64,000 nucleotides of DNA from Blastocatellia bacterium (GTDB taxonomy: Bacteria; Acidobacteriota; Blastocatellia; RBC074). The DNA is taken from NCBI GenBank assembly GCA_016789725.1, contig JAEUQN010000001.1, positions 78,588-142,587 of the forward strand. Reading direction: 5' to 3'. Positions 1,205-29,339 of the stretch are shown one piece after another (the first letter of the stretch is position 1; each line of letters opens with the position of its first letter). The notes beneath the pieces were generated by a model, which saw only the letters and a list, made by a program, of their open reading frames with translations, was not told the origin of the DNA and did no database searches. Position numbers and translations under genes: made by a program.

Positions 1205-3457
1205 ATGGGAAATATCATTGAAGTTGCGGTTTTCGTTTTCAAGCTGTATCGGAAGTACAAATCACCAATCACGATTTGTAACGAACTCGATTCAGTTTAT
1301 CCCGTGCCGCGTCCGACGGACACACCGTTTTTACCACCATATCAAGCTGTGCAAGCATTGATCTCAATTGGCACGCGCATGTTCACGATTGGCGTGGCCT
1401 CGGTGGTCGGATTGGTGTGCTGGTTGCTTGCGTTCTACTTTCTGCAATTGAGCTTGTTCGGTGTGACCGGGGCGGTTTTGCTCTTTCTGTGTGCCGGGAC
1501 TTTGTTGATTGCTTACTCGGAAGCCAAACAATTACCGCTGGCTTACCAACGCACGCAACAGCGCGTTTCGCAAGGGACGGCCTACTGGATGGAACCGGAG
1601 ATGATGGAGGATGCGGGTATCTTGTTTGATGCGGAGGATGGTTCTGACCGGATGGATCGTCTGGTGAGTCGTTTCTTTCGGTTCTTTGGGGTGAATCGTG
1701 AGCGGTCGGAGCAGGGAAAAGTATTTCCGCCGGAGGAAGGCTTTTTGGAAATGGGCCGGTATGGTTCCAAAATCATTGGCTTGCCGTGGGAGTTGTCTTC
1801 GCGCCACCTGGCATTGTTTGGCAAGACGGGCAGTGGCAAATCCAAGACGTTTTTCATAAACCAGATGCGCCGTTGGGCGAAACAGGGAAGCGTAATTGCC
1901 CTTGACCCCAAAGGCGAGCTGATGTGGCAAACGGGCCGTCATTTCCGCAATGTCTATCGCTTCAATCTGGTAGACCCGCTTGATTCTGACCACTGGAACT
2001 TTGTGCCAGATTGTCGGGATTCTGCGGTTGCCATTGATATTACTTCCATCATCCTGCAACTCGATCCGGTTAATAAAAAGGCAGGGGGCGTTGATCCGTT
2101 TTGGGAAAATGCCGAAGCGCTGTGTTTGTGGGCGCTCTTGATGTTTCTTTCGTCCTGTCGGAACGCGGACGGCTCGCCGATGATCCCGGCTGATCTCTCG
2201 CGTCTCATCTCTGCCCCGGAAGAATTCGCCACCGAAGAACAAATCGAACGGGCGAAAAAGACGGCGGAAGTCTCGCCGACGCGCTCCTTCAATGTGTCGC
2301 TCATCAATGACCTGATGATGTCCGTACCGGGCGAAATCGGCAAAGAAATCAAACACGCCTGGGGCATGTTTACAATTGTGAAGCAGGAAGGGCACGGGAA
2401 TGTCCTGCTCGGTTTGGGCGTGCGTTTGCGCAGCTTCATGACGGCAACCGTGCGCAGTCTCGCACAACCAATTGGTGGCAAAACCAATGCGCGCTGGATT
2501 TCTTTCAAAGAACTGCGCCAACCCGGTACGGCAGTTTTCCTCATCGTCAACGAAGGCGATACGGCCACCTATCAAGGCTTGCTCGCAACCTTCATGGGGA
2601 TGGCCACGCAGGCCTTGCGCAAGTCCGGCGAAAGCAAACGCGATGCGAAAGTGCTGTGCCTGTTTGATGAAGCGGGCAATATTCCAATTTGGGGGTTAGC
2701 GGAGTTGTTGGGCTTGGGTCGTGGGCGAATGATTTCGGTCGTCTGCTGTTACCAAACGGTCAATCAAATCTATTCCCAGTATGGTAAGGAAAAGGGCGAT
2801 ACGATCTTGGATTTGTTCACCAACTATCTGTTTCTCCCCGGCGCAACGAATCAAACAGCGGAACTGATTACGAAGCTGCTGGATAAGACGACAACGTGGT
2901 CACACACCGCCGTCAATGTTCTCGGTGGTTCTGAAGGTGATAACGAGCGTTCGGCGGAGATCGGGCGGGAATTGATGACGGTTGGTGAAGTGCGACAGTT
3001 GGTCGAATACAAACAAGCGTTAGCGATTGTCTCGACCTTACCACCGATTAAGCTGGCTTTCCCGAAATTCGCTTTTGATGCAGACTTGCCGAGGTTCAAA
3101 ATCGAAGGCGTTGTACTGGAGAAAGTTTCGTCTGCTGCTGTGTTAGAAGATGCAGCGGAGCCGGGGGAATTGGTTGAAGCAGTGGAAATTCAACCCCTCG
3201 CGGTTGCGCCCGCGCCGCCTGTACAGAAGGAATCGCTGATTGATTTTCTCGCCCTGGTGAATAGCGCGAAATCTGCCCCCGCTTCCTCCGTCGAAGTTGC
3301 TTCTCCAGCGGTGACCGATGAAAGCCCCGATGCTGCTCCTCCCTTGCCTCCGACACCTTCCCCCAAACCCAATAATGCGCGTCTCATCAAAGCGACCCCG
3401 CCGGTTTATGATCCATTTGACGAAGACCTCATCGAAAGGGACCCCACACTGTTATGA
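1205..3457 (+). CDS. Type IV secretion coupling protein (VirD4/TraG/TraD family ATPase)
   Basis: N-terminal TM helices. Walker A FGKTGSGKSKT is followed by VIALDPKGEL, as in VirD4/TraG. A Walker-B-like LFDEAGNIP is present. The C-terminal tail is Pro-rich and acidic. Confidence 0.7.
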   Translation: MGNIIEVAVFVFKLYRKYKSPITICNELDSVYPVPRPTDTPFLPPYQAVQALISIGTRMFTIGVASVVGLVCWLLAFYFLQLSLFGVTGAVLLFLCAGTLLIAYSEAKQLPLAYQRTQQRVSQGTAYWMEPEMMEDAGILFDAEDGSDRMDRLVSRFFRFFGVNRERSEQGKVFPPEEGFLEMGRYGSKIIGLPWELSSRHLALFGKTGSGKSKTFFINQMRRWAKQGSVIALDPKGELMWQTGRHFRNVYRFNLVDPLDSDHWNFVPDCRDSAVAIDITSIILQLDPVNKKAGGVDPFWENAEALCLWALLMFLSSCRNADGSPMIPADLSRLISAPEEFATEEQIERAKKTAEVSPTRSFNVSLINDLMMSVPGEIGKEIKHAWGMFTIVKQEGHGNVLLGLGVRLRSFMTATVRSLAQPIGGKTNARWISFKELRQPGTAVFLIVNEGDTATYQGLLATFMGMATQALRKSGESKRDAKVLCLFDEAGNIPIWGLAELLGLGRGRMISVVCCYQTVNQIYSQYGKEKGDTILDLFTNYLFLPGATNQTAELITKLLDKTTTWSHTAVNVLGGSEGDNERSAEIGRELMTVGEVRQLVEYKQALAIVSTLPPIKLAFPKFAFDADLPRFKIEGVVLEKVSSAAVLEDAAEPGELVEAVEIQPLAVAPAPPVQKESLIDFLALVNSAKSAPASSVEVASPAVTDESPDAAPPLPPTPSPKPNNARLIKATPPVYDPFDEDLIERDPTLL

Positions 3458-3981
3458 ATCATTTTGGCGATCAGCAACAACGCTTCTTTATCACCTACAT
3501 CATCGCAATTGTGGCGGTGATCGTCTGTCTCGGCGCGTTTCTCTATCGGGGTTACGCCGACGACAAAGCCATCGCAGCGTTTCTTCCTCAATGCAAAGCA
3601 CGCTCGTTCGTGAAGCTGATGGTGGAGTACCGCAAGCAGAGGCAGGAATTTCCGGTGGATTGGATGGAATTAAAACAAGCGACTCCAGCGCTCGCAAAGG
3701 TGGAGTGGAAATCCATTGGCATGCAGCAAATCACGCTCGCCAATTATCGCTACGTCATCACGCGCCTGCCCGAAGATCGCGCGGCGTTGTGGGCATTCCC
3801 TATCGGTGACTATCGCACGCGCGGCCCGGCCTATTGTGTGATCCTCGGTGCATCCTGGGCGCGTGTCTGGGGGCGACGTGCGCTTTCCGATGAAGCGATC
3901 TTTTCTTTGCCTGTGATTCCAACAGCGGAGGTTTTGCAGGAAGCGAGGTTTCAGGAAGTGCCGACGGACAAGTTGCAGTGA
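3454..3981 (+). CDS. hypothetical membrane-anchored protein (175 aa)
   Basis: Start overlaps the T4CP stop (ATGA-type coupling). N-terminal TM helix. Confidence 0.4.
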   Translation: MNHFGDQQQRFFITYIIAIVAVIVCLGAFLYRGYADDKAIAAFLPQCKARSFVKLMVEYRKQRQEFPVDWMELKQATPALAKVEWKSIGMQQITLANYRYVITRLPEDRAALWAFPIGDYRTRGPAYCVILGASWARVWGRRALSDEAIFSLPVIPTAEVLQEARFQEVPTDKLQ

Positions 3982-4283
3982 ATGTTTTTCATTCTAACCG
4001 ACCTAAAGAGAGGCTGCGTTTGTTTCAGATAGAACGAGAAGAAGAAGGCGCGGGATTATTGTTGACGAACGATCTGAGCCTACTAGCGAAATGGATCGTC
4101 AAGCATTATCAGCAGTGGCCGGATATTGAGCAGGATTACGAGCAACTCAAGAGCAGCAGTTGGTTGCTGACCAGAGCGAGATCCACGGTCACGGCCTCAC
4201 CGTTGCCAGGCTGTCCCCTGCTTGATGGCCGAATATTTTCGCAAGAGACAGGTGCCTATTTCCACCAAAGACAAAATGCTTGA
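3978..4283 (+). CDS. hypothetical protein (101 aa)
   Basis: Translationally coupled to the upstream gene. No motifs. Confidence 0.35.
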   Translation: MNVFHSNRPKERLRLFQIEREEEGAGLLLTNDLSLLAKWIVKHYQQWPDIEQDYEQLKSSSWLLTRARSTVTASPLPGCPLLDGRIFSQETGAYFHQRQNA

Positions 4284-4818: not shown

Positions 4819-5913
4819 ATGGGTATCTGGGTCGAAATCTTAAAACTTGGTGGCGCGGGCGAATATACGATAGCGCGAAAGATGCTCGCGCTGAACCTGC
4901 CTTTTTCATTACGAGATTTTGCTCCGTCAAGTGCAAGTCAGCGTCAGTATCACGGCGTGCTCCCGCGTGCCGTCAGGCGGTTTGCCATGACCCTTCCTAC
5001 CAACGAAAAAGGGTTGCTCCAGAGCTGCGAATCAGATTTTATTGATACTCTCCTGACAGATGTCTGTGAAGAAGTTGAACGGACATTATTACTGGTGGAG
5101 CTATGCCATCGGGAACCACAAGTGACGATAGAGCAGTTGCAACAGCTTTTCCCCTGGTCGCAAGGTCTCAAGCGAAGCGAGGGTTGGAAAAGAGCACGGC
5201 TGCTGGGGTATCTCCGCTCCTTTCAGGCTGTAGGAGTACATCTTCCTCCTGATGTTTGTCACACGGTTGCAGCCGCCGCTGAGCAGGAAGTCCCGGTCTT
5301 TTTATTTGATGAAATTGCTTATGCCGTGTCTGGTAGGCGAATGGAGCAAGGCTGGAAGGATTTCAAAGAAGAGATGGAGTGGAGTGATAGATTTGTCGGA
5401 ATCATCACCGGCGAAGAGGATATGTCAAGCGCCGCTGAGTGCTTGGATTATAGTTCCATTGTCTCCGCGCGATGGCTGGTCAATCCGATTGATGAAGACG
5501 CCGAGCATAAGGTCGAGTGGCTCCTCTTAGGAAGGGAGGTAAGCCCTGATTTGATGGCGCTCCTGGATTCTTTGCACGCGAACAGCCCAACCGATGGCTA
5601 TAGGCCGATTGCTTGGCATAATGTTTTTTGGAATCTCTCTTCCAACTATGAATCTCTGCCCCTCGCGCTGGAACTGCGAAGCCCTTTTCAAGAAACCGAT
5701 CAGGAATTGGCAGATCATATTGTCTCTCATTACACCGAAGTGAAGAGTACCTCGCGCCCTGTCATTTCACGGCGGAGAAAAAAGCTGTATGACATTTGTG
5801 CGGAGCGCATCATCCGCCGTCTGCGAGAATATTTCGCGCCGACGGAAAAAAATGTGATTGAGGTGAACAAAACGAAATCGGAATCACACTTACCCTTGAG
5901 TGAGGAACAATGA
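4819..5913 (+). CDS. hypothetical protein, first gene of the defense-like operon (364 aa)
   Basis: Stop overlaps the start of the 2104-aa helicase gene (ATGA). I recognise no domain. It is preceded by a 535-bp AT-richer intergenic region. Confidence 0.5.
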   Translation: MGIWVEILKLGGAGEYTIARKMLALNLPFSLRDFAPSSASQRQYHGVLPRAVRRFAMTLPTNEKGLLQSCESDFIDTLLTDVCEEVERTLLLVELCHREPQVTIEQLQQLFPWSQGLKRSEGWKRARLLGYLRSFQAVGVHLPPDVCHTVAAAAEQEVPVFLFDEIAYAVSGRRMEQGWKDFKEEMEWSDRFVGIITGEEDMSSAAECLDYSSIVSARWLVNPIDEDAEHKVEWLLLGREVSPDLMALLDSLHANSPTDGYRPIAWHNVFWNLSSNYESLPLALELRSPFQETDQELADHIVSHYTEVKSTSRPVISRRRKKLYDICAERIIRRLREYFAPTEKNVIEVNKTKSESHLPLSEEQ

Positions 5914-8900
5914 GCGGAACAACAACCATCTCGATCTCATCGGCGCTGCTACAAAAGGCGGCGCAATATGCGAGGCTATGTTCTGCTGCGGCCACGCGCG
6001 AACGTGTGTTGGTTTCTCATACGGTAATGCTCGCTGTGCAGGAATATCTGGAAAAGGTGCTAGGCGTAGCAGCGGAGCAGGGGCGTTCGCCCCAACTAAA
6101 ATTTGTCGAATTGCTTGATCTGGCAGATTTCCGTTTACAAGGATGGTCGCTTGAGGTACGGGCGATAACGTCGGTGGTCGAGCCCGCCCTTTATGTTCCT
6201 ACTATGCCCATGCTTGTCGGGGCGTTGGCAGATCATTACTTGGCGGCACAAGTGAATCGCTCGCTGACAGAGATAGAGGTCTTTGGCTTTGCCTGTCGAG
6301 AGGATTTGTCTGAAGCTGAATTGAGCGCGAATGGTCTCTTCGCCATCTTGCCAAGTGACTTACTGAGACCATTTGTCGAGTTGCCTTCGCTTCTCAGTAA
6401 ACCCTCTCGCAAAGACCCTGCGCCAGGAAGCGCATTTGAGGAATGGCAGGTACGAGGGGAGCGATTGTTATTGAACGTGAGTGAATGGCTCACAAACGAA
6501 GCTGTCTTTAGCCCAGAACAAATTGGGCACTTAGCCGCAGGACTGCGGGATGAGGTGCTGCGCGTTTACGGCGAACATCTGCCCGCTACTGGGGTAGAGC
6601 CATTACTAGAGCAACTCTTTCGTCGCTTTGGCATGCGACGCCCTGTACCGGCACCACCGCAGAGTGATTTGTTGTTTGCTCCTAGTGCCGAGGAGCAAAC
6701 AGAATTTGCGCGCTGGGAAAACCGGGAAAGCTATTTTCAGGACAACCTATATCCGGCGGAACGCGCGTCGCTTTACCGCTACTTACTGGCGGATGAAGCC
6801 GCCTTGCAGGAACATCGGCAAATGAGAAAGACGCTGGATCGGGCGACGAAAGGGAAACACCTGGCGTCACCACAGCGACGAAAACGGATGGCCCGACAGC
6901 AACAAAGTCGTTCCGTTTCTGCCACGCTGGAGACAGAACCTATCGCCCCAGACTTGCTCACAGCACTCACACAGGAAAGGGAATTCATGACAGGATCACC
7001 ATCATACGCACCTCACACGGCATCGAATGATTCGATGAATATCTTTGCATTTCGGGATCGCTTGATCGCTGATTACGCCAGCTATGTACAAAGCTTTATT
7101 CAAATTCGTAATCCCCGCGTTCGTGATTACGTCAACGAGCAACTCAATGCGGGTGTCTTTTACCCGGAGCCGTTGATTCAATTGAATCCCTCTTTTGCTC
7201 TTGGCGATTCACTTGACCAACTCATCACTGATCAGGTGTTGCATCCCGAATGTGCGAACATCTTTCGCAAAGATAAAGAAGATACGATTAGTTCAGGCCG
7301 ACTGCTTAATCTTCACCAGCATCAGACGGAAGCGATCAAAGCTGCACAGAAAGGCCATAATTATGTGCTGACGACCGGAACGGGATCGGGCAAAAGCCTC
7401 TCGTACATCATTCCTATCGTGAATCACGTTTTGCGGAATGGCACGGGGCGCGGCATTCAGGCGATTGTTGTCTATCCGATGAATGCACTGGCAAATAGTC
7501 AATTCGGTGAGTTGGAGAAGTTTTTATGTCGTGGGTATCCAGATGGGCCACCTGTTACTTTTGACAAATACACAGGACAGGAAAATGAGGAGGAACGAAA
7601 GCGCATTACACACAATCCTCCTGATATATTGCTCACAAACTATGTGATGTTGGAGCTGATCCTGACGCGCCCGGCTGAGCGGAAAATCATTGAAGCCGCT
7701 CGCGGGTTGCGATTTCTCGTCCTGGATGAATTACATACCTATCGTGGGCGGCAAGGCGCGGATGTGGCCTTACTCGTGCGGCGTGTGCGTGATCGCTTAC
7801 AAGCGAATGAACTGCAATGCGTCGGTACTTCTGCCACGATTGCCGGTGGTGGCACGTTCGAGGAACAACGAACAGAAGTGGCGCGTGTTGCAACACGGCT
7901 CTTTGGGGCAGCGGTGCGCCCGGAGGCCGTCATCATGGAAACGCTACGGCGCACCACCCCAGACCACGATGAACAGGATGCGAAGTTTGTCGCGGAGTTG
8001 AAGCAGCGTCTGGTTGAGATTCGTAAGGGAGAGCTTTTTGCGCGGGATTATGCCAGCTTTGTGAACGACCCATTGGCCATCTGGATCGAAAGCACATTAG
8101 GGGTCAAATCGAAAGACGGGCGACTCGTCAGATGCCAGCCACAAAGCATTACCGGCGAAGAAGGCGCGGCGAAAAAGCTTAGTGATCTGACTGGTATTGA
8201 GCGAGACCACTGTGAGGCTGCGATTGTGCGGGCTTTATTAGCGGGCTATGAATGTGAAAAGAATCCAGCCACGGGGTTCGCGCCCTTTGCTTTTCGCCTC
8301 CATCAATTCATCAGTCGTGGAGATACCGTCTATGCCACACTGGAAGAAGAAGCGGCACGCTATCTCACCATTTATGGACAACAGTACAGGCCCGGATCGC
8401 GTGAACACGTATTGCTCCCGCTCGTTTTCTGCCGTGAATGCGGGCAGGAGTATTACGGAGTACGACGTATCTACAATAAACAAAATCGGCCTGACCATTT
8501 CGCTCCACGCCAATTGAATGATCAATTAAGCGATCAGGAGAGCGAAGCTGGATTTCTTTACTTCAGCACGGACAGGCCATTTCCGACCGATGAAGAACAG
8601 ATTATCAATGAAAATCGTGTGCCCGATGATTGGGTTGAAGAACGAAAGGGGAAGTGGCGTATTCGGAAAGATCGCCAGGCAGATTTACCACGAACTATCT
8701 TGTTGGGGACAGATGGTGTGGAAGCGCCAGAGGGGAGGCACTTCAGTTATATCGCCGCGCCGTTCCGCTTCTGTCTCTGTTGTGGTGTGGCCTACGGTAT
8801 GCGGCAGCGCGATGATTTTGCGAAGCTTTCCTCGCTGGGTTCGGAAGGCCGGAGCACCGCCACCACGATTACCAGTCTTTCGGCGATTCGCTCCTTGCGT

Positions 8901-19463: not shown

Positions 19464-19483
19464 ACCGAAATGAGTTTTCCAGA

Positions 19484-22400
19484 TCAACGGTCAAACATCT
19501 CGTCATAGATACTTGCAGGCGCTGCTGCTGCAATTTCAGTGCGCTCCGGTTCCGTTTGCAATGTGCGTTCGATGCTTTCTGCGCGCTCTTGCCGTTCGTC
19601 GGTACGACCTTCCTTGGCGTGTGTGTAGTCGGATTGCTGATCGTCGCGCATCATCATTGCATTGCGTGTTGCGAGAGCTTGATCGGTGGGCAATTCTTGC
19701 TCACGATTTGTCGTAACTTCGGTTCTTTCGGTCGAACGTTCCAAGCCAGGTTCGCGTTCTATTGCCTGATCTACCAACCGATCCAGTTTCTCGAAGCCGC
19801 CATAGTATTTCTCGCGGGCCGTGAGTTCGGAATGCTGAAACGCTTGCAACATCTCGCGCTCCTGGGGCGTCGCTTGTTGCATCGCTTGGGCCGTGAAGTC
19901 GTTGTTGTTGACTTGTTCTCGGCTTTCCGCGATTGCATTATGACGGGCTGTTTCTGCGCGTGTTGCCGCCTCCCGTAAATACTCCCGGCTGCCTTCCGGG
20001 AGATTGAGGGTTGCGAGTTTGTCACTGAACTGCTGACTATTCGCGCGTCCTTCGTAGTGATCTTTGATGAGCGGCACAAGCTCATCTTTTCGCCCTTCCA
20101 ATACTGCTTTGTAGCCTGGTTCCTGAAGGCCACTCTTCCAAGTGTTAGCCCATTCTGTGCGACCGGCAGATGCCGCTTGCTCCTGCCCTTGCGCTTCGGC
20201 CACGCGCGCTACAATTTCTTGCTTGTGACGGTTGAGCGCATCGCGGGCATTCAGCACATCATTTTGATATTCGCGCATTGTCTCCACTTGCTTGAAGACC
20301 TGATGAGCGGTCAGGTCTTTCTCGGCAACGCTCTGGCCGCGCGCTTCTGCATTGTCTTTGCGGCGATGAATCTCATCGGGTATTGTTGCGACCCACGTTT
20401 CTTTGGAAATCTCTCGTGATAAGAATTCTTTGCTTTCCGGGTTCTGGCGAACGGTCACTTGTCCATCTGCCACCATACGCACTTGTGTGACTACCTCGGT
20501 CTTGGGATCGGCTTTTGCCGCTGTTATGGCCTCGGCGTAGGCTTGATAGCTGCGACTATGAATCGCAACGGCTCCATACAGCCGCTCGCCTGCGTCACGG
20601 CGCAGATGTAGCTCCTCGCTGGCCTGCTTGGCGATAAGGTTCACATAGCGCCGCTCGACATCGTTCAGCGTAGGACGACCCTCTTGTTTGCTGATGGCTT
20701 CTTCCAGCCGCTGACTGAGCGTGTCATGGTCACGCGCAGATTGAATTCGGGTGACGACTTCCTGCGCTTGTGGACTCGCTTTCTCCGGCGCATGCACTAA
20801 GGACTCGGCGCGCAGGCTGGTGACTTGTTGGTAGATAAAATCTTTCTCCGTCGGCCTGAGTTGCGCGACATTTTCCCGCAATTGCCAGGACTGTTCCTGG
20901 GGCGTCATCTCGCGTGAGAGTTTGGTGTTGGGGTTCACTAATGCGGCAAACCGATTGAGCTTTCCGATGTCGGGTCGTCCTTCGCGATCACGCTGTAGAT
21001 CAAGCGCCGTGATGATCTTCTGAACTGGCTCCGAGAGTTGTGTTTTCCCCTGCTGCATTCGCTCCACTTCGTTGCGCTTGTCTTGGGCTGTGAGAAGAGT
21101 GTCATGGAGTGCGCGGTGCATCTCCGGCGTGTAGTGCTGGGTGTGTGGGCCAGGGTTGGCCAGCAGCGCGCGTTGCTCGGTCGTAAATTTCCGATGACTG
21201 GTCTCCTCGCCTGCGCGTTGTTTGGCGGCATTGCTGTTGTTGAAGTCGCGGATCTGACGCGCCATCTTCTCTACATCGTCTGCGGTTTTTTGTTGGCGCA
21301 GAGCCTCGACAGCTCGTTGAAAGACGGGTGAGCGATTGCTCTCTCGCACGTAAGCATCCTCGCGCAGAACTTGTTGGGTGTACTGTTCGGTGAAACGCAC
21401 CAAGCTTTGATATTCCGCTTTGATGTCTGCGGGAGAAGCGCCTTTGGCCCGCGCGGTTTCGATGGCTGCCAAGTGGCTCTCATATTCCCGTGCGTTTTGT
21501 TGGGCGCGATAGGCTTCTCTTCCGGGTCTGTCTTCGATTCGGAGCGGGCGTTCGGCTTGCGCGTCGTTGTAGTTGCGCACATATTCGTTGATCTGGCGTT
21601 GTCCTGCCTGAGATGTCTCCCAATGCGGATTGGGCGCAAGTAATAATTCTTTGTCGCGCGGGCTGAGGTATGGATTCATCAACACCCGCTCGGCAAAGAT
21701 CATTTCTCGTTCCGCTGTCATCGGGCGTTCGCCCATTTTCAGCCGATCTGCATACATCTCCCGAAAATGAGTGTGTTCGCCCTCTGGTGCATTGGTACGA
21801 AGCGCGAATTCCTGCGCCCTTGTCGCATAATCTCGTGACGCCTTGTGCGCCCATTCAGGACTTTGGGCGAGTTGTTGCAGTTCGAAGGAATTGAAGCTAT
21901 TGGCCCGCGCTATTTCTTGCACATGTTGGTATTCGCGTGCGCCTTGCGCCTTGAGATGATCAGTCAAATCTAGTGTTTCTTTGTTGCCAACGTAGGCAGA
22001 ATGCTCCAATAAAGTCGCTGTTTCTTTGCGCGACAATCCTGCGTTGAGAATGTCCTGTCCCAAGCGTTCTGCGTCGGCAGGTGAAAGCTGTCCTTGCTGA
22101 TAAGCGTCGTATCGCCCCGCCAAACCTTGTCCGCGCTCGGTGCTGAGAATCCGGGCGACATCCTGTTGCTGATCGAGATAGTGTCCAGCGAAACGTTGGA
22201 CAGTGCGCGCGCCTTCGACTAACTCTCGCGGGCTGATCTGTAAACGCAATGCTTCCGTGATGCTCGGCATGGCGGTTCTGACGAGATATTGGTCGGTAAA
22301 GAGATGTTCATTGCCTGGGAGGCTGGTTTGCTGATCCAAACCGCCAATCCGAATGGCAGAAGTATTGAAAACTGTCCCTTCTCGCACGGCCTCGAAATCC

Positions 22401-23263
22401 TGCTCCTCGTATCGTTCCTCGGCAAGCTCATACTCTGTGACTTCAAATTCGTCAGCGTGACTGACACTGAAGACTTCTCTCTCGTCGTAGATGATCTGGC
22501 GATCTTCGATCTCTATGTCACGGTCGAACTCCGTTCGGTCTTCGGCTTCCAGCCGCACCAGCTCCTGATCCATTGCACCTCGCGCTTCCAAAATGTACTC
22601 GCTGTTGCCGCTGGCCCCGCCTTGTTCCATCAAGTCATCTTTGGAAAACTCTACAGCTTGGAGTTGCGCTGCGATTTCGCCCATTTGCGTTAAGGCTTCG
22701 CGTGTCGCCGTCAAACGCTCCGCATCCGGGCGATACCCGCCGCGCTCGTCGAAATTGATGGGGCGGAGATATTCATTGATGATCTCTAGTTTGTACGTCG
22801 TATCCGCATTGCGCCCCGCGATGGCTTGAATGTGATCGTGAAACTCCCGCGCCATTTCCCGCGTTGGCAAGTGCTGTATCAAATAGGCAAATTCACCTTT
22901 GTGTGGCTCGTCCGTGTTGGGAGTCGTGCGGGTGTGTTCTTCCGTTGGAATGATGGCGACTTCGCGATTGGCCGTGGCCCCAGCTTCATACATTTCCGCT
23001 AACGTGGTGTAGCCGTCGGCGCGTAACTTACTGGCCCATTGCGCCCGATCATAGCCTTCCGGGGGATTGAATACCGTACTTAAGTCGTCACGGTTGACTA
23101 AATGATGTTCCCCCGTCGCACCCGCAGATCGAGCCACAATCTCCACCATTGTGGCTTTTCCGTAGGGGCTTTTGTGTTCGTCCAATAAGTCCTGAACGCG
23201 TTTGTCTTGGTACGTTGCGGAGTCGGGAAGTTGTCGAAATGGATTGTAGCTCTCACTGGCCAT
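19484..23263 (-). CDS. large acidic, repeat-rich hypothetical protein (1259 aa)
   Basis: Long intact ORF with Gln/Glu/Arg/Ala-rich helical repeats. No enzymatic motif recognised. It is convergent with the MTase, leaving only a 20-bp gap. Confidence 0.45.
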   Translation of the reverse strand: MASESYNPFRQLPDSATYQDKRVQDLLDEHKSPYGKATMVEIVARSAGATGEHHLVNRDDLSTVFNPPEGYDRAQWASKLRADGYTTLAEMYEAGATANREVAIIPTEEHTRTTPNTDEPHKGEFAYLIQHLPTREMAREFHDHIQAIAGRNADTTYKLEIINEYLRPINFDERGGYRPDAERLTATREALTQMGEIAAQLQAVEFSKDDLMEQGGASGNSEYILEARGAMDQELVRLEAEDRTEFDRDIEIEDRQIIYDEREVFSVSHADEFEVTEYELAEERYEEQDFEAVREGTVFNTSAIRIGGLDQQTSLPGNEHLFTDQYLVRTAMPSITEALRLQISPRELVEGARTVQRFAGHYLDQQQDVARILSTERGQGLAGRYDAYQQGQLSPADAERLGQDILNAGLSRKETATLLEHSAYVGNKETLDLTDHLKAQGAREYQHVQEIARANSFNSFELQQLAQSPEWAHKASRDYATRAQEFALRTNAPEGEHTHFREMYADRLKMGERPMTAEREMIFAERVLMNPYLSPRDKELLLAPNPHWETSQAGQRQINEYVRNYNDAQAERPLRIEDRPGREAYRAQQNAREYESHLAAIETARAKGASPADIKAEYQSLVRFTEQYTQQVLREDAYVRESNRSPVFQRAVEALRQQKTADDVEKMARQIRDFNNSNAAKQRAGEETSHRKFTTEQRALLANPGPHTQHYTPEMHRALHDTLLTAQDKRNEVERMQQGKTQLSEPVQKIITALDLQRDREGRPDIGKLNRFAALVNPNTKLSREMTPQEQSWQLRENVAQLRPTEKDFIYQQVTSLRAESLVHAPEKASPQAQEVVTRIQSARDHDTLSQRLEEAISKQEGRPTLNDVERRYVNLIAKQASEELHLRRDAGERLYGAVAIHSRSYQAYAEAITAAKADPKTEVVTQVRMVADGQVTVRQNPESKEFLSREISKETWVATIPDEIHRRKDNAEARGQSVAEKDLTAHQVFKQVETMREYQNDVLNARDALNRHKQEIVARVAEAQGQEQAASAGRTEWANTWKSGLQEPGYKAVLEGRKDELVPLIKDHYEGRANSQQFSDKLATLNLPEGSREYLREAATRAETARHNAIAESREQVNNNDFTAQAMQQATPQEREMLQAFQHSELTAREKYYGGFEKLDRLVDQAIEREPGLERSTERTEVTTNREQELPTDQALATRNAMMMRDDQQSDYTHAKEGRTDERQERAESIERTLQTEPERTEIAAAAPASIYDEMFDR

Positions 23264-23568
23264 GCCGCGTTCTCCTGAAAACAGTTCGCTCCGATCAAGG
23301 CTGCCAATGCAAAATGACCTGACGAAACAGAGTTCTTGCTGCTTCTTCAGGTCATCTTCGCTTTATGCAACTTCTATGCGAGACGTAGGTAACTTCAAGA
23401 AATGGGCATACGGAAGGAAGGTGATGCTCTAAGGTGTGCGCTGCCATCACTTCCTCACCCCAATGCTCGGTCAGCAATCCGTTGTTGAATTTTCCCCGGT
23501 AGGTTGTGGCAAAGATGGTTCGCGCCTGCTTCGTGTAGGCCGCACGCCAGGACTGATAGCTTCTCGCT

Positions 23569-24219
23569 TTATTTCCCTTTCCTGAATTCCTCCGCCGTCA
23601 TCAGCTTTGCAAAGTACCGTTCGCCTTCCTTCTTGCCAGCCAAATAAATCCCTCGGCCTTCACCGTCATGCGTGTAGGGTTCCCCACTCAAAAACGCATT
23701 CGCCCGATACCCTGCTGGCGGAACGCAGTTGAGATAATGCTGATACTGCTCCTCTGTTGTCTCGCGCCACATGGGGGCAAACAGATTCAAGTCAAATACG
23801 GTCGTCGGGAAGATATGCCGCATGACTGATGGATGATTGCATTGTTTGATGCAGTGATAAGCGCGCGCGCCGTTTTCAAAGCGTTGGATCACAATGCTTG
23901 CTGGACTCGCCAAAAAGCCACGCAGCAAATCCGCTGTGTTGGCGTGAACGCCGATTCTTTCATCGCCGCCGGCGACCATTCCGCGATCCAGCTTGTGCGC
24001 GAACCATAGACCGAATTGGTCTATCATAATGGTGTGGGAGTCCTGTCCTAATTGCATGCCGTTGCGTTGTTGTTCCTGGGCGTAGCCTGGGACTTTGCCA
24101 TCGTATTCTGTGATGAAGAGATTGGGCGTGAGATAGCTTTCCGGTGAGAGTACATTTCTTTGTTGATTGGACATATTGCTTGGTAGAGAGGTTGTCGGGT
24201 GTAAGTGACTGGACGACAC
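23569..24219 (-). CDS. hypothetical protein (216 aa)
   Basis: Intact ORF. No motifs recognised. Confidence 0.4.
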   Translation of the reverse strand: MSSSHLHPTTSLPSNMSNQQRNVLSPESYLTPNLFITEYDGKVPGYAQEQQRNGMQLGQDSHTIMIDQFGLWFAHKLDRGMVAGGDERIGVHANTADLLRGFLASPASIVIQRFENGARAYHCIKQCNHPSVMRHIFPTTVFDLNLFAPMWRETTEEQYQHYLNCVPPAGYRANAFLSGEPYTHDGEGRGIYLAGKKEGERYFAKLMTAEEFRKGK

Positions 24220-24281
24220 TTGGTGATTCGCCCAGCGTCTGTAATCGTGTGAGAGGAGCCACGTATTTTGTAATGGGTGGC

Positions 24282-24866
24282 CTATTTGACGGCGAGACGA
24301 GCAATTCCTTCTTCGCCGATCATTTCGTAAGCAAACCCTTGCTTACCGAAAGCTGCGAGAAAATCTGTGGTGACCTGGATTAAGTCAGCGGTGCTTTTGA
24401 TTGCCACTGGAACTTTTAGAGAGTCGTCGTGCTTTGTGCGCTGCCGGATGTACAGCCACACCCCTGCCACCATCAATTCTTCGACCGTCTTGGCTTTCGT
24501 AAGCGCCCGTTGATAAAACTTCTGTACGGCTGTATAGCTGGTTTGCGAGGTGTGTTTCCCTTCTAACGCGACACTGGCGTAATAGCCGTACTGCTGGTCA
24601 TCATACACGCCCCAATCTGGATAATTCTGACACCACTCTTCATTGCTTTTGATGAGGGAAGCACGATCTTCCGCGAGACGCGCCCAGATGTCGGTCTCTG
24701 CCGCAAAAGGAGTATCGTTGGGCGTGACACTGCGATCCCAATGCCAATCGCGTGCGCGACGTCGCGGACTCACTTCCCAGCAATTGTTGTCGCCGCTTTC
24801 GATCATGGGCAGATACTGGCCCTCGGCTTTGATGAATAGAGAACGGTACAAAATTCGATAGCTCAT
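24282..24866 (-). CDS. hypothetical protein (194 aa)
   Basis: Intact ORF immediately upstream of the 216-aa gene on the same strand. Confidence 0.4.
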   Translation of the reverse strand: MSYRILYRSLFIKAEGQYLPMIESGDNNCWEVSPRRRARDWHWDRSVTPNDTPFAAETDIWARLAEDRASLIKSNEEWCQNYPDWGVYDDQQYGYYASVALEGKHTSQTSYTAVQKFYQRALTKAKTVEELMVAGVWLYIRQRTKHDDSLKVPVAIKSTADLIQVTTDFLAAFGKQGFAYEMIGEEGIARLAVK

Positions 24867-25199
24867 AGTATGAAATGAATTGGTCGAGTTGTGATTGGTT
24901 GGGTTATCGCAGCAATTGTGCGAGTGATGAGGCGACTGTGATTGCTCCGTTGATTTAGACGATCATACCACCGTAAAGCATTTTGACTTCGGCTTTCCAA
25001 CATTCAATCTGTGGATACTCTGCTGCGCATGAAAAGAGTCCTTTCATTGCGATCATCTCCTTCCAGCCAGGTTCTTCCACTAAATCGTCAGGGAGAACGC
25101 GAGTCCTCGTATGTGAGATTGATGTGCATTGGCGAGGTGTTGTTGCAAGCGACGGCAGTGTTCTTGGAGTCGGTGAATCACTCCTGAATCTATCGTGCG

Positions 25200-25589
25200 C
25201 TAATCGTTACGCTGTGATTCCAGTTGCAACAGGGGCACGACTAACTGGTATATCTTTTTCGCAAGTGCCTGACAATCTGTCTTGTCTGGTCGCGCCTCAT
25301 CGCTGTACTCGTGATCGAAGATGATGCTTGCAATCGCTTCCTCCGGCTCAATCTGAGCCTCTGTATCCAACTGTGCTGGTTGTTCTGTCGCAGGCTTTTG
25401 TTCGACTTTGATGCGGCCCGTACGGTAGCCATAAGAAATGGCGTTGGCTTTGATGAGTTCGATGATCTCATCCTTTGGAACTTCCTGTGTCCCTGCGAAA
25501 TGAAGTTGGATCGTGGCTTCGCTTTCTTCGAGCAGCGAAATCCAAATCTGGGGTGCGAGGAGAAGAATGGCTTGTTGCAATGCGGTCAT
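25200..25589 (-). CDS. small acidic hypothetical protein (129 aa)
   Basis: Acidic composition. Lies downstream of the relaxase operon on the same strand. Confidence 0.35.
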   Translation of the reverse strand: MTALQQAILLLAPQIWISLLEESEATIQLHFAGTQEVPKDEIIELIKANAISYGYRTGRIKVEQKPATEQPAQLDTEAQIEPEEAIASIIFDHEYSDEARPDKTDCQALAKKIYQLVVPLLQLESQRND

Positions 25590-25599
25590 AGGCGAGTCG

Positions 25600-25851
25600 T
25601 CAGATGGACGTTTGTTGTTGTTGGCTGGTTCTGTGTGTCTCTTTGGCGAAGACAGTGATCGGTTCCAGGTTCCTCAATTCGTGAATCAAAATGCTTTCGT
25701 TCAGATCAGGGTCGAAGTCAAAACCAGCTTGCCGCGCTAATTCGTTCACCTCGTCGGCATTGAGCGACGGTGATAGCAAATCTTTGAGAGATTGCACTAT
25801 CGCTACGGTTTCGCCGTATTCGTGTTGATGAACGAGAATATATGGTTTCAT
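25600..25851 (-). CDS. small hypothetical protein (~83 aa, internal Met start MKPYILVHQ)
   Basis: ORF 25600..25965. The N-terminal 38 aa look non-protein-like, so the later Met is preferred. Confidence 0.3.
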   Translation of the reverse strand: MKPYILVHQHEYGETVAIVQSLKDLLSPSLNADEVNELARQAGFDFDPDLNESILIHELRNLEPITVFAKETHRTSQQQQTSI

Positions 25852-25984
25852 GCCGATTCCTTGTGGTGGGTCTGATGGAAGCTTTCGTTGGTTGCGAAAA
25901 GACAATGAAGTAGTTCCTGTCTCGCAACCTCCCTGTCTTGATAAGAGACGCGCTGGCCTTCTCAATGGTTCGTGGCGTGGTTTC

Positions 25985-26434
25985 TTAATATTCAGGGCCA
26001 GCGACGTCAGCCGTTGTGAGTGTCGCCGCCGCTTCCATTGCCAAGTCAGTCAAATCGAGATGCCTCAATTCACCTTCGGAATTGATCACCCAGGCTTGTG
26101 CGTTGAGATACCGCATCTTTTCGTTACCGACTTCAAGGATGATAGCGACTTGTCCCTGTGCGAGCAATTGGCACAGTTCGCCCAACACGTCGGTATCTTC
26201 TTCGGTTTCTAGGTCCCAGCCATTATTCGAGAATCCACTTTCCTTGCTGTCGGACATCAGGAAGCCGACGCGATTCTCCTTTTCGATCAATTCCAGATTG
26301 TGTCGTTCGCAGAATGCTTGGAATGCTTCTGCATCGTTAACTTCAAAGTAATTGGATCGGAATTTTGCTTCGTAATTTGCCATAGGTGATTTTTGCTTCG
26401 AGTTTAGTGGCTGCCTTATCGCTCCGGCATCCAA
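25985..26434 (-). CDS. acidic hypothetical protein (149 aa)
   Basis: Overlaps the relaxase stop by 19 nt. Asp/Glu-rich. Possible DNA-mimic or anti-restriction candidate; this is inference only. Confidence 0.4.
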   Translation of the reverse strand: MDAGAIRQPLNSKQKSPMANYEAKFRSNYFEVNDAEAFQAFCERHNLELIEKENRVGFLMSDSKESGFSNNGWDLETEEDTDVLGELCQLLAQGQVAIILEVGNEKMRYLNAQAWVINSEGELRHLDLTDLAMEAAATLTTADVAGPEY

Positions 26435-28662
26435 TCCACGTCTGCGCGCTGTTCTTGCGCTGGCGTGCGTTCGATGGTTTCCGTGCGTTCGGGGTCGGTT
26501 TGCGATTGCGCTTCAATGCGGCTCATTTGTTCGATTACTTCTCGCTCTTCTTCCCGCTCCATTCCTTTCCGTTCATATTCCCAGCTAAGCTGCTGTTGCG
26601 TTTGCTCTTTGAACTCTTGCACCGCTTCTTTGTCGCGGCCCGCTAAGGTATGAACGTGCTGCAACATCTCTGCCAATGCTTTTGTCTCGTGGCTCGGCTT
26701 GAAATTGAAAAGCCGCTGCGTGTCATTGTAGAGGGATTGTTTGAGGCTCAGCGCGACTTCCTGACCTGCCTTGTCGGTGACGACCATCGTTGTCCGTTCG
26801 CCGCGTTTTTCGATCTGGTCAAGCGCGAAATTCGCACTTCGTTCTTCCCTCGCCACTAACGCCTGCATTCGTAGGTCGTGGTCTGCCAAGGCTCGCCCAA
26901 CATCGTTGCTGCTCATCCTATCCGCCACAATTTCTGCTTTCCGCGCTTCTTTCAGTAGCTCAATATCACGCGTCTCTACTGCAATTCGCGTGATCTCTGC
27001 GTATTCGCTGAACCGCAAGGTCGGGCGAACCGTGTCTTTCTCGCCACTTGCTTGCTGCTGTAAGAAAGTTGTGATGCCCGCCAACGATTCGCGCGTCTGT
27101 GCCAGTCCTTCGGCTTTTCGCTCCAGATAGTCACCAATTCTGGCGACGGGTTCCTTCGCGGCTTCGGCTTTCTCCTGTTTGGCGTATCGAACACTGGGGA
27201 TTACATTCTCAAGGTTGATGTTGCCATTGTAATCAACGTATTTTGCCTGGTGCGCTAAATACTGTGCTTCCCGCAACGCTGACGCATACGATCTTCCTTC
27301 GACCACTTCCTTGTTTTTGCCGTTCTCAAAGCGGTGCAGGTCGTTTTCGTTTCCTTGCAAGCGGGCTTGTGTGAGCAATTGTTGTCCACGCAGCCAGCTT
27401 TGCTGTTTCGCTTCATCGAAGCCGTTCTTCTGCCGCTCGGCTGCCAATGCCAACGCCAAGCGATCTACCTTGCCGCTGCGAATCGCCTCCGTTTTGATCC
27501 AATCCGCTTGCGCCTGAGTAAGTTTGGGAATGACGTGCGCGCCCTCAACCCCCAGCGATTCGCGCCCGACGCTTACTCGCTCCTCGTAGTCGTTAACCTG
27601 TCCTTGTAATTGCTGCGCCTTCGCTTCCAACTGCGACTGAATGGCTTCTTTGTGCAGCGCGTACTTTTGCTCCATCTCTTCTTTCGCTTGCGGTACGGTT
27701 TGCAAATTGGGTTTGATGCCTTCTCTGCGCAGCTTGGCAAAGGCTTCATCATTGATCCGCTTGTCAATGTCATACAGCGAAAGGGGGCGAAGCTCGCCCT
27801 CTACACGAAACTTCCAACGTTCGCCATGATCCTCCAACGAAGCTTGTTGGCGACGTAACGCGTCCAGCTTCGTCTCCTGAAGCAATTGCAGTCCCTTCGC
27901 TTCAGCAAGGTCTTTGGTGATTGCAATGTTGGATTTTGGTTCGCTGGTCTCATATTGCTCGGCTTCTGAGTCAAATCGTTCTGCCCTCAGCAGTGGTTCG
28001 TTGTACTCCGATCTCGGTTGTTGGCTGTCCGTAATCGGAGTCATTGTCTGCGCCACATCGCGCGCAAAACCAACTGACCGCTCATAGTCTGGGTTGCGTT
28101 CTCGAAAAGCGGCTTGCTGTTGGTCGAGTTCGGCTTCGAGGCGCGCCAGAAACGGACTCGGTATGACTACTTTGTCCGCTCCGAATCCTTCCGACTTCGG
28201 CAGCCACCGATAGGGCATTTCGTTGAGCGTCATCTGCTTTCTGTGTTCTGTGTTCTTGTACTCCTTCCAAATCACGACGTGAGTGTGCGGATTGTCGGTA
28301 TTCAGATGAATTCCAGCTACCCATCGCAAATGATCTGCCTTGATTGACTCTCTTGCTTCTTCCATTCCCTGGCGAATTACCTCCCGGAATGCGGCGGTAC
28401 GCTCTTTGTCTGTGGCTCCCATTTTGTCGAAATCCTCCGGGCGCAAGGACAGCACCAGGTGAAAGGTGTCGGCGCGGCTGAGCGTATCTTTTCCGTTCAA
28501 GATGCGATTGGCTTCTTCGACAGAAAGCTTGTCGTGTTCAGCCGAAAAGAGATCGCGGTGCTGCCTCCCTTCGCGGCTTTCATCCCGATCTCGCTCAGAA
28601 ATGTATTTCGTCGGAGACATTGCGGCGCTTTTGGCTTGTGGCGCTCGGATGGAAACTCTCAT
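26416..28662 (-). CDS. Relaxase (MobA/VirD2 family) with long coiled-coil C-terminal extension
   Basis: His-triad motif HLNTDNPHTHVVIW (HxDxxxPHxH). An N-terminal Tyr-containing region SPTKYISERD. 748 aa. Confidence 0.7.
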   Translation of the reverse strand: MRVSIRAPQAKSAAMSPTKYISERDRDESREGRQHRDLFSAEHDKLSVEEANRILNGKDTLSRADTFHLVLSLRPEDFDKMGATDKERTAAFREVIRQGMEEARESIKADHLRWVAGIHLNTDNPHTHVVIWKEYKNTEHRKQMTLNEMPYRWLPKSEGFGADKVVIPSPFLARLEAELDQQQAAFRERNPDYERSVGFARDVAQTMTPITDSQQPRSEYNEPLLRAERFDSEAEQYETSEPKSNIAITKDLAEAKGLQLLQETKLDALRRQQASLEDHGERWKFRVEGELRPLSLYDIDKRINDEAFAKLRREGIKPNLQTVPQAKEEMEQKYALHKEAIQSQLEAKAQQLQGQVNDYEERVSVGRESLGVEGAHVIPKLTQAQADWIKTEAIRSGKVDRLALALAAERQKNGFDEAKQQSWLRGQQLLTQARLQGNENDLHRFENGKNKEVVEGRSYASALREAQYLAHQAKYVDYNGNINLENVIPSVRYAKQEKAEAAKEPVARIGDYLERKAEGLAQTRESLAGITTFLQQQASGEKDTVRPTLRFSEYAEITRIAVETRDIELLKEARKAEIVADRMSSNDVGRALADHDLRMQALVAREERSANFALDQIEKRGERTTMVVTDKAGQEVALSLKQSLYNDTQRLFNFKPSHETKALAEMLQHVHTLAGRDKEAVQEFKEQTQQQLSWEYERKGMEREEEREVIEQMSRIEAQSQTDPERTETIERTPAQEQRADVDWMPER

Positions 28663-28730
28663 AATCCTTCATAGATTTTCGGGATTCGTTTTTCGTCAAA
28701 CTCAAACCGAGAGGCGAATGTTGACAACCA

Positions 28731-29339
28731 TTATTTGGGTTCTTCGTTGAGAAGAAGTTTCCGATACTTACTGATTTGGGCTTCGACCTTCTCCAAACCG
28801 GCAGCAAGAATCTTTGGTGCTTCCGGGTCTTTGCCGAGTAAGGCTTGTGTGAGATGGGCCGTTAAGGTTGACTCGCCAGTCATCGCCAACAGAATCTTGC
28901 TGAGGTTGTTGTTCTGTTCGCGCAGGAGTTCAATTTGCGTGAGTAAGCGGGCGTTCTCATCTATGGTTACTTGCAGCGCGATCAAGTCTTTACTGAGCTT
29001 GTCGAATTGAATCCCATTCACATCCTGCGCATGCCTGCTCGATACCTGGATGTGTTCGACAAGCTCGCCGATGATTTCCCCTTTGAGGATCGCGATACTT
29101 TGTGGGGAGTTCGGGTTGAACTTTCCTTCGCGGATATCCTTGTACTCTTCGCCACGTTCTTCGGCCTTGATGCCAAGTTCAATGAGTCTGCGCAGGTATC
29201 GTTGCTCATTGTAGAGCGGCGACTTCCGCTTTTTCTCGTTCAAGTAGGCGCGCTGCTCTTTCTTGAGTCGGAGCGGAATCGGATTACTTTCAAATTCAGA
29301 GGGCTTCTTCTTCTTGAGCAAAGCAGGTTTCGATTTCAT
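28731..29339 (-). CDS. relaxosome accessory protein (MobC-like), 202 aa
   Basis: Lies immediately upstream of the relaxase on the same strand. Basic N-terminus (LRLKKEQRAYLNEKKRK) followed by a coiled coil. Confidence 0.4.
   Translation of the reverse strand: MKSKPALLKKKKPSEFESNPIPLRLKKEQRAYLNEKKRKSPLYNEQRYLRRLIELGIKAEERGEEYKDIREGKFNPNSPQSIAILKGEIIGELVEHIQVSSRHAQDVNGIQFDKLSKDLIALQVTIDENARLLTQIELLREQNNNLSKILLAMTGESTLTAHLTQALLGKDPEAPKILAAGLEKVEAQISKYRKLLLNEEPK

Follow-up and report, generated by a model that had tools for sequence, protein, structure and literature searches.

A variable slot with an ARMADA type I-like defence operon in the transfer region of a probable conjugative element from a Blastocatellia bacterium

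What kind of element carries a 14.6-kb operon of helicase and methylase genes between a coupling-protein gene and a relaxase gene in a Blastocatellia bacterium, and is this operon part of the element's own machinery or cargo? The genes lie in a stretch of 64,000 nucleotides (nt) of contig JAEUQN010000001.1 (positions 78,588 to 142,587), hereafter called the window, to which all coordinates refer unless another locus is named. We consider it likely, with a probability of about 80%, that positions 1-29339 form the transfer region of a conjugative element, either a plasmid or an integrative and conjugative element (ICE), with an operon resembling ARMADA type I in a slot between two convergent transfer operons. 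The first of these operons, on the + strand, and the gene end that precedes it comprise the following features.

1-359, + strand: 3' end of an AAA_5/MadB-like ATPase gene, the last ATPase of a mating block, identified by DNA identity to the related locus L001
412-1158, + strand: backbone gene directly 5' of the coupling-protein gene, encoding a membrane protein of 248 amino acids (aa) with one transmembrane helix
1205-3457, + strand: type IV coupling protein of the VirD4/TraG/TraD superfamily, 750 aa (Pfam matches, Walker motifs, two transmembrane helices)
3454-3981, + strand: conserved membrane protein of 175 aa, final gene of the coupling-protein operon and left border of the cargo slot

The coupling protein matched Pfam T4SS-DNA_transf (PF02534) with an expectation value (E) of 7.9e-32 (111 bits, cut-off 20.1), TrwB_AAD_bind (PF10412; 2e-20, 73.5 bits, cut-off 20.5) and TraG-D_C (PF12696; 3e-17, 63.2 bits, cut-off 22). 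Walker A (GKTGSGKS) lies at residue 206, DPKGE at 234 and Walker B (LCLFDEA) at 484, and the two N-terminal transmembrane segments are hydrophobic helices at residues 52-70 and 71-89. The protein remained below cut-off in the named NCBIfam subfamilies CD1115, TraD and TraG, of which CD1115 came closest (175 bits versus 250), and every coupling protein in PLSDB (72,556 plasmids) was at most 25% identical to it (range 22-25%). On these scores, the coupling protein is very divergent.

The second operon runs on the opposite strand towards the first and is listed here in its direction of transcription.

29340-29990: non-coding region upstream of the relaxase operon, candidate origin of transfer (oriT) and promoter by its position only
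28731-29339, - strand: accessory protein of 202 aa, first gene of the operon and by position a putative relaxosome part
26416-28662, - strand: MobL-type (MOB-P-like) relaxase, 748 aa (Pfam MobL, Tyr and His motifs)
25985-26434, - strand: small gene from the list of open reading frames (ORFs), 149-aa ORF (132 aa in the related locus L017)
~25642-25851, - strand: small gene, ~69 aa, placed from L017
25200-25589, - strand: small gene from the ORF list, 129 aa
24282-24866, - strand: small gene from the ORF list, 194 aa
23569-24219, - strand: small gene from the ORF list, 216-aa ORF (201 aa in L017)
19484-23263, - strand: backbone protein of 1259 aa, last gene of the operon, with a domain that we call domain X at residues ~20-240

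The relaxase matched Pfam MobL (E 1.8e-12, 47.5 bits, cut-off 28.5) and fell below the cut-off of NCBIfam MobP3 (62 bits, cut-off 150). Its catalytic Tyr20 lies in TKYISERD, and its His triad, HLNTDNPHTH at residues 119-128, aligns with that of the solved PDB relaxase 9qq7; the nuclease domain takes up ~200 aa at the N-terminus, and a long helical, charged tail comes after it. Homologues were found at 93% (P0024), 63% (P0025, in locus L008) and 36% identity (L009). The sequence-only reading of this DNA had named a VirD4/TraG-type coupling protein from GKTGSGKS and DPKGE and a MOB relaxase from its His triad at these same positions and had staked both on profile support; both ORFs and their motifs are as described there, and both proteins pass their Pfam cut-offs. 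With a Tyr near the N-terminus and motif III of the form HxNTDNxHxH, the relaxase resembles MOB-P/MobL relaxases that accompany VirD4 coupling proteins of the CD1115 kind, and the coupling protein of the window shares the TrwB and TraG-D_C domains with that kind. It differs from those systems in scoring under the NCBIfam subfamily cut-offs and in having the relaxase-associated domain on a separate protein, the one of 1259 aa.

Upstream of the relaxase, the gene for the 202-aa protein is a real ORF that lies directly beside the relaxase gene in L017 as well and has two paralogues in L008 (48% and 45% identity). The protein matched nothing in Pfam, NCBIfam or PHROGs, the MobC profile included, and the MobC label that it had been given at first was dropped as a positional guess. 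The non-coding region 29340-29990 holds an 18-nt inverted repeat (29494-29511 and 29559-29576), and we regard this region as the candidate location of oriT. The five small genes at 23569-26434 are kept in the same order in L017 at 93% DNA identity; they gave no family matches, and homologues were not detected in L003 or L004. The 216-aa and 194-aa genes also had no PADLOC match. A PHROG scan of ten unassigned proteins returned a single weak match, that of the 194-aa protein to a major tail protein (E 0.0067), which we took for chance.

Relatives were gathered by searches with the coupling protein and the relaxase, and their contigs, which range from 38 kb to 1.05 Mb, were read. Nine loci share the backbone, and they differ in what lies in the slot between the convergent stop codons, which in the window are at 3981 and 19484 and enclose 15.5 kb.

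L001 and L002 (JGI and Logan samples): coupling protein 96% identical; slot of L001, as of the window, with the ARMADA-like operon
L003 (Blastocatellia bin): coupling protein 64% identical; slot with a C5 methylase and an RRXRR/HNH protein
L004 (Logan sample): coupling protein 51% identical; slot with a DUF1963 protein
L014 (Acidobacteriota bin): coupling protein 35% identical; slot with a PD-(D/E)xK protein, AbiEi/AbiEii and a 2629-aa NACHT protein
L015 (Nitrosomonas nitrosa): coupling protein 36% identical; slot with a Cas4-like gene and others
L020 (ENA/NCBI sample): coupling protein 33% identical; slot empty, with 366 nt between the two convergent stop codons
L009 and L018: relaxase gene directly next, co-directional
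L017 (slot edge near the 1259-aa gene only): AbiEi/AbiEii, a 92-aa gene, a related methylase and three more genes, including DUF4062

The coupling-protein homologues at 96%, 64%, 51% and ~35% identity each adjoin a mating block, and the neighbours of the coupling-protein gene are conserved with it. The 248-aa membrane protein, which had no family match in Pfam or NCBIfam, keeps its position at 94% identity in L001 and L002, 59% in L003 and 30% in L004. The 175-aa membrane protein, with no PADLOC match, is 98% identical in L001, 78% in L003 and 49% in L004 and has homologues of 179 aa in L014 (7e-27) and 190 aa in L020 (1e-10). On the other side of the slot, L017 shares 93% DNA identity over window positions 19475-33711 and has the same relaxase operon.

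Does this backbone include a mating apparatus? The first 375 nt of the window are ~94% identical to L001 8637-9011, which lies within L001 gene 7994-8995, and the block to which this gene belongs is therefore expected directly upstream of the window, as judged from relatives at 96% protein and ~94% DNA identity. The protein of L001 7994-8995 matched Pfam AAA_5 (7e-14) and a MadB-like NCBIfam model (7e-24). In the relatives the block begins on the opposite strand with genes for a ~900-aa protein, a 107-aa protein and a 117-aa protein, and continues with an SLT transglycosylase, three unassigned proteins and the AAA ATPase; next come the ~240-aa membrane protein, the coupling protein and a further membrane protein (173-190 aa). 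In L001 these block genes encode a VirB4-like protein, the 107-aa and 117-aa proteins, SLT, proteins of 238, 429 and 473 aa, and the AAA ATPase. The part from SLT to the coupling protein is present in all six loci with a whole upstream flank (L001-L004, L014 and L020), and in L001, L003, L004 and L014, the four with a flank long enough to include it, the VirB4-like ATPase stands at the far edge of the block. The divergently transcribed trio is complete in L001, L003 and L014; in L004 a single 148-aa gene replaces the two small genes, L002 has both small genes and, of the block ATPase, no more than the initial 75 residues, and in L020 the trio lies past the contig end. L009 (Pyrinomonadaceae) and L015 show the block in part. 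The sequence-only reading had seen no genes for mating-pair formation (MPF) in the window, which is nearly right: bases 1-359 are the end of the block ATPase gene.

The VirB4-like gene of L001 encodes 903 aa, and all five NCBIfam matches of its product are VirB4/TraC models, each far below cut-off (TraC-F-type 4e-12; CD1110 5e-11; VirB4_CagE 3e-8 over residues 316-843; Mbov_0397 2e-7; PRK13721 TraC 0.004). In hhalign profile comparisons, F TraC was matched over 339 columns with 82% probability and a Lactiplantibacillus VirB4 with 91%. The protein has a Walker A motif, AASGNGKT, and its gene comes after the 117-aa and 107-aa genes in an order like that of virB2-virB3-virB4; the 107-aa protein has a weak match to TIGR03750/DUF3487. 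Taken together, the 903-aa protein is read as a putative divergent VirB4. The ATPase encoded by L001 7994-8995 is of the MoxR/MadB-like AAA_5 type, unlike VirB11/T2SSE ATPases. No VirB11-like gene was seen in the mating blocks of the relatives read; among type IV secretion systems this is unusual.

The backbone resembles VirB4-based MPF systems, whose types were described by Guglielmini et al. (PMC3548315), in its lytic transglycosylase, its virB2-virB3-virB4-like trio with a ~900-aa Walker A ATPase, its coupling protein and its relaxase. It differs from them in a putative VirB4 that has no Pfam match and sub-threshold NCBIfam matches, and in a MoxR/MadB-like AAA ATPase where no ATPase of the VirB11 type was seen. 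Tentatively, and at somewhat less than even odds, the backbone may represent an untyped family of conjugation systems centred on Acidobacteriota (Blastocatellia and Pyrinomonadaceae). Such a family would be marked jointly by a VirB4 without Pfam match, a MoxR/MadB-like ATPase in the expected place of VirB11, domain X that is sometimes fused to the relaxase and sometimes borne by a separate protein of more than 1200 aa, and a fixed slot after the coupling-protein operon with many defence systems and fast turnover at 93-96% identity.

The backbone family is undescribed, comes so far mostly from Acidobacteriota metagenome bins and is probably acidobacterial. Megablast of positions 1-25000 against PLSDB and E. 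coli genomes gave no match, and two metagenome scans, one with an alignment of the coupling protein and one with the YprA helicase of the operon, confirmed no relative. Look-ups for proteins identical to the coupling protein and the relaxase of the window returned no record. A genome scan returned L005 (CAZWAK010000297.1, 5.5 kb) and an already known Blastocatellia contig, nothing else. The coupling protein of L005 is 96% identical to that of the window, and its bin is labelled 'uncultured Heliobacteriaceae'. Nearly all other named relatives are Acidobacteriota, plus one Nitrosomonas, and the label probably reflects wrong binning of a short contig from a mobile element.

The protein of 1259 aa had been counted with the bracketed genes in the sequence-only reading. 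The ORF is there, and L003 (58-59% identity) and L004 (~35%) retain it in a convergent position like that in the window; by this conservation it is part of the backbone and not cargo. It matched nothing in Pfam, PADLOC, NCBIfam or PHROGs. Its N-terminal domain X (residues ~20-240) was recovered in 17 cluster representatives by an exhaustive phmmer search. In three of them (P0053, P0061 and P0063) the domain lies at ~220-400, immediately behind a MobL relaxase domain at the N-terminus; this MobL domain shares 32-36% identity and the His triad with the window relaxase. A further MobL-domain X fusion, P0026, came from the relaxase search, which brings the fusions to four distant proteins. The gene for P0053, in L018, follows directly after a coupling-protein gene and a 178-aa gene, and in L020 a 1517-aa domain-X protein (9e-21) is encoded directly 3' of the relaxase gene. 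Because domain X is fused to MobL in four proteins, the 1259-aa protein can be argued to work with the relaxase, and we infer that it is a split relaxase partner that would form part of the DNA-processing machinery.

The slot itself holds, in the window, an operon of five co-directional genes at 4819-19463 (14,645 nt) with strong helicase and methylase matches, preceded by one further ORF.

3978-4283, + strand: 101-aa ORF, first gene of the variable region, just 5' of the operon (homologue in L001)
4819-5913, + strand: 364-aa protein; its gene opens the defence operon and overlaps the helicase start with its stop
5910-12224, + strand: YprA/DruE-like helicase-nuclease (ArmC-like), 2104 aa (Pfam, PADLOC)
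12226-15048, + strand: SNF2 helicase of the BrxHII/RapA/DrmD type (ArmA-like), 940 aa (PADLOC, motifs)
15126-15404, + strand: small gene, 92 aa, directly 5' of the methylase gene and kept in L017
15411-19463, + strand: N6-adenine DNA methyltransferase of the PglX/DrmMI/type IIG kind (ArmB-like), 1350 aa (Pfam, PADLOC)

The relatives that share the backbone carry other genes or nothing in the slot, which identifies the operon as cargo; the 14.6-kb defence-like operon of the sequence-only reading thus gains its cargo status from this comparison. The slot is variable among these loci, with content that is often defensive. In SXT/R391-like ICEs, fixed intergenic sites vary in content between close relatives and are rich in anti-phage systems. 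The window shares with these hotspots a conserved transfer backbone and a fixed site whose content varies among close relatives. The differences are another backbone family and host phylum, a site at the junction of two convergent transfer operons, and a sample of nine relatives.

The 2104-aa helicase has the domain order DUF1822, DEAD, Helicase_C, MZB (DUF1998) and Vsr/DUF559, with Pfam matches to DEAD (2e-29), Helicase_C (2e-13), MZB (2.6e-9) and DUF559 (1e-6, residues 2035-2082). Its best PADLOC matches are Druantia DruE models (DruE3, 7.5e-109); GSGKS at 492, LVLDELH at 603, five CxxC motifs and an intact Vsr-like segment, PDF...YIDGPIHD...VIRF, were recognised. The SNF2 gene starts at ATG 12226, two bases past the helicase stop, and not at GTG 12025. 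Its product matched the PADLOC DpdE model PDLC02853 (1.7e-260, from residue 69), DrmD (1e-84) and BrxHI/II (3e-64) and, in NCBIfam, best DrmD (309 bits, below the cut-off of 610) and RapA (1.7e-34); it carries GIGKT and DEAH. The methylase matched Pfam Eco57I (1e-20) and N6_Mtase (6e-10) and PADLOC DrmMI (3.5e-70) and PglX (2.4e-16), with DPACGSG at 500 and NPPW at 776.

Plasmid MP1 of Deinococcus radiodurans (L019) carries these three core genes too, in identical order and with insertion sequence (IS) elements on the flanks, and the core is therefore an independent portable module. Identity to MP1 is 46% for the helicase (residues 364-2097), 50% for SNF2 over its full length and 41% for the methylase. 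The MP1 module has no counterpart of the first ~360 helicase residues, the 364-aa gene or the 92-aa gene. The 101-aa ORF, which had no PADLOC match, occurs only in L001 (98% identity) and is absent from L003, L004 and the MP1 locus.

The additional parts of the operon have a narrower distribution. The 364-aa protein is 95% identical in L001 and had no match in Pfam, PADLOC, NCBIfam or PHROGs and no tblastn match in PLSDB. The N-terminus of the helicase matched Pfam DUF1822 (34.6 bits), a mostly cyanobacterial family, and its first ~360 residues (5910-7019) had no match in PLSDB. As the stop of the 364-aa gene overlaps the helicase start, both may form one module, possibly a lineage-specific sensor or regulator. 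The 92-aa gene accompanies the methylase in L017 (a 103-aa gene, 21989-22300) despite different neighbours.

Close copies of the operon genes differ in parts. DNA identity between the window and L001 is ~94%, falling to 87% in the SNF2 gene, and the helicase gene of the window is shorter at its 3' end by ~335-350 bp (window 12196-12213 versus L001 20925-21278), which in L001 encode a C-terminal extension of ~110 aa after the Vsr domain (2218 aa versus 2104 aa). The methylase gene shares ~91% DNA identity with L017 over its first two thirds and near its 3' end (74% for the protein); its central 1.35 kb (17659-19011) does not align, and G+C dips to 0.467 at 17-19 kb. The centre of the methylase looks like an exchanged target-recognition region, which would mean a specificity change between close copies of the element.

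To which defence system does the operon belong? Bell et al. (2025 preprint, PMC12458937) give the order of ARMADA type I as a YprA homologue, a BrxHII/RapA-like helicase and a PglX-like methylase. The YprA helicase there has a C-terminal Vsr nuclease, the helicases of its clade carry BrxA-like and beta-barrel zinc-module insertions, and its closest kin are the Druantia helicases; ARMADA and DISARM class 1 have two genes in common (PMC12458937). The window operon combines a YprA-family helicase with a DUF1998 zinc module (MZB) and a C-terminal Vsr-type nuclease, for which DruE models are the nearest profiles, with a BrxHII/RapA-like SNF2 protein and a PglX-like methyltransferase. The genes at 5910-12224, 12226-15048 and 15411-19463 follow the type I order, and the GajB-RelE gene of type II is absent; the gene next to the methylase is the convergent 1259-aa backbone gene. 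By domain content and gene order we assign the operon as ARMADA type I-like. The mobile elements with ARMADA described in PMC12458937 are prophage- or satellite-like.

That the operon is instead DISARM class 1 or Druantia is improbable. The DruE, DrmD and DrmMI models are among its top PADLOC matches and DISARM DrmD is the best NCBIfam match of SNF2, and DISARM class 1 (DrmD, DrmMI, DrmA, DrmB, DrmC) indeed parallels the window in a DrmD-like SNF2, a DrmMI-like methylase and a helicase accompanied by DUF1998. In the window, however, DUF1998 is fused to the helicase and a Vsr domain takes the place of the phospholipase D (PLD) nuclease, and the scores lie under the NCBIfam equivalog cut-offs (DrmA 20.7 bits versus 950; DrmD 309 versus 610). 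We excluded DISARM on the absence of a separate DrmB (DUF1998) gene and of the PLD nuclease DrmC from the operon. Druantia was likewise excluded: a DruE-like helicase is present, but DruA-D, DruH and DruM/F/G found no PADLOC match among the five unassigned neighbours scanned, a set that leaves out the 92-aa gene. Resemblance to DruE and DISARM accords with what PMC12458937 states of ARMADA, and the PADLOC release used (2.0.0, 2023) is older than the ARMADA name. More improbable still is that the helicase-methylase operon is the element's own machinery for DNA processing or for anti-restriction methylation during transfer. It runs co-directionally and closely behind the coupling-protein operon in both the window and L001, and large helicase-methylase fusion proteins are often carried by conjugative elements; yet it is absent from L003, L004, L014, L015 and L020, which share the backbone, its three core genes form an IS-flanked module on an unrelated Deinococcus plasmid, and its best profile matches are all to defence families.

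As for the element, the sequence-only reading had left the choice between a mobilizable element and part of a larger conjugative plasmid or ICE, and the block upstream in the relatives favours the second. A mobilizable plasmid or integrative and mobilizable element, with its own coupling protein and relaxase and a borrowed channel, would fit the fact that the 64-kb window contains no complete gene of a mating apparatus. We regard it as very unlikely, as the first bases of the window belong to the ATPase gene of a block whose place just 5' of the coupling-protein gene is conserved; this block has SLT, membrane proteins and AAA ATPase in six relatives, some of them 96% identical, and a VirB4-like gene in four. 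A decayed conjugative remnant, immobile and fixed in the chromosome, would make the defence operon part of a genomic island; the lack of integrase, replication and partition genes in the window, its continuation into a metal-resistance island of higher G+C and the 1.05-Mb contig of the distant relative L009 speak for it. We think it unlikely: all backbone ORFs are intact with their catalytic motifs kept, intact copies of 93-96% identity exist in at least two other samples (JGI 3300015615 and ERR13655520), and the cargo differs between close copies, which indicates recent turnover.

Several observations weigh against a conjugative element with an ARMADA type I-like cargo. The VirB4 gene and the rest of the mating block lie outside the window, and the VirB4 assignment of the 903-aa protein comes with scores far under the NCBIfam cut-offs, no Pfam match and no VirB4 match in PDB sequence searches with the single protein or a four-sequence profile. 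No integrase, tRNA, replication or partition gene is present in the 64 kb, and direct or inverted repeats flanking the cargo were limited to chance matches of at most 13 nt. For domain X, an AlphaFold2 model from 17 sequences reached a predicted local distance difference test score (pLDDT) of 60, and Foldseek against the PDB returned nothing below E 0.9. The ARMADA placement is a putative one by domains and gene order; the 364-aa gene, the 92-aa gene and the ~360-aa DUF1822 N-terminus are undescribed in PMC12458937, in which only type II was tested experimentally and type I was not.

We favour a conjugative element that would be active in transfer. Its relaxase, aided by the 202-aa and 1259-aa proteins, would nick oriT, probably just upstream of its own operon, and the coupling protein would pass the DNA-relaxase complex to the channel from the upstream block, including the putative divergent VirB4. 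The cargo would protect the host cell and hence the element: in a mechanism like those proposed for ARMADA and DISARM, the PglX-like methylase would mark host DNA adenines, and the SNF2 helicase and the YprA-Vsr helicase-nuclease would attack unmarked incoming DNA.

Beyond the transfer region, a co-directional - strand array at 29400-40763 runs into the relaxase operon and is syntenic with L008 and L017. In addition to many small unassigned genes it contains the following.

39111-40763, - strand: RecD2-like superfamily 1B (SF1B) helicase at the start of the array (NCBIfam RecD2 3e-137, below cut-off)
36001-36453 and 35370-36083, - strand: two genes weakly similar to single-stranded-DNA-binding (SSB) proteins
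~32692-33229, - strand: GGDEF homologue
29988-30353, - strand: DUF4326 homologue

GC skew is strongly positive (0.15-0.26) over 29-36 kb. The motif GTAAAAACC occurs 6 times versus 0.31 expected, always on the + strand within 29.97-36.6 kb, and two near-copies exist besides; the sites (29973, 30386, ~30610, 31466, 33288, 35060, 36578 and ~37100) span 29965-37108. On the - strand the motif reads GGTTTTTAC-N6-TA, and six of the eight sites precede the next small gene of that strand by ~33-125 nt; three of the eight are conserved in L017. GTAAAAACC may serve this small-gene array as a repeated promoter or operator. The array resembles the leading region of a plasmid, and anti-defence genes might be among its members.

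The remainder of the window is occupied by a metal-resistance island (41951-53302 and 61783-63975, G+C 0.56-0.61) and further genes.

41951-48017: efflux trio of the OEP/HlyD/AcrB type (resistance-nodulation-division, RND), metal-resistance island
48988-49506: extracytoplasmic function (ECF) sigma factor, metal-resistance island
50357-52684: P-type ATPase with HMA domain, metal-resistance island
60794-61846, - strand: second lytic transglycosylase with an SLT domain (350 aa), distant from the transfer genes

YtkA-like proteins and PCYCGC proteins are likewise encoded in the island, and at the window edge lies the end of another RND pump. An arsenic-type cluster at 53868-57430 comprises an ArsC-like low-molecular-weight phosphatase, a MIP channel, a glyoxalase-family protein and an ArsR-type regulator. 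The 350-aa transglycosylase shares 41% identity over 108 aa with the SLT gene of the L001 mating block; near its gene lies a VWA-domain gene (58453-59568), with an unassigned ORF of 285 aa between them.

Conjugative elements with defence genes as slot cargo are known already, as is the defence system found here, and the locus does not overturn current views. New are an uncharacterised, probably acidobacterial backbone family, a split-off relaxase partner and a variant of ARMADA type I with extra parts. The link of the 1259-aa protein to fused relaxases is a first functional handle on an unannotated protein family, and an ARMADA type I-like system, of a class named in 2025, is placed on a probably conjugative backbone. 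The relatives form a natural series for cargo turnover, from an empty site through small and large cargo to a methylase with a replaced central segment, which possibly changes specificity. Among the main routes of immunity exchange between bacteria are defence systems in fixed slots of conjugative elements, and this locus would extend the pattern to a phylum with hardly any studies of conjugation, probably Acidobacteriota.

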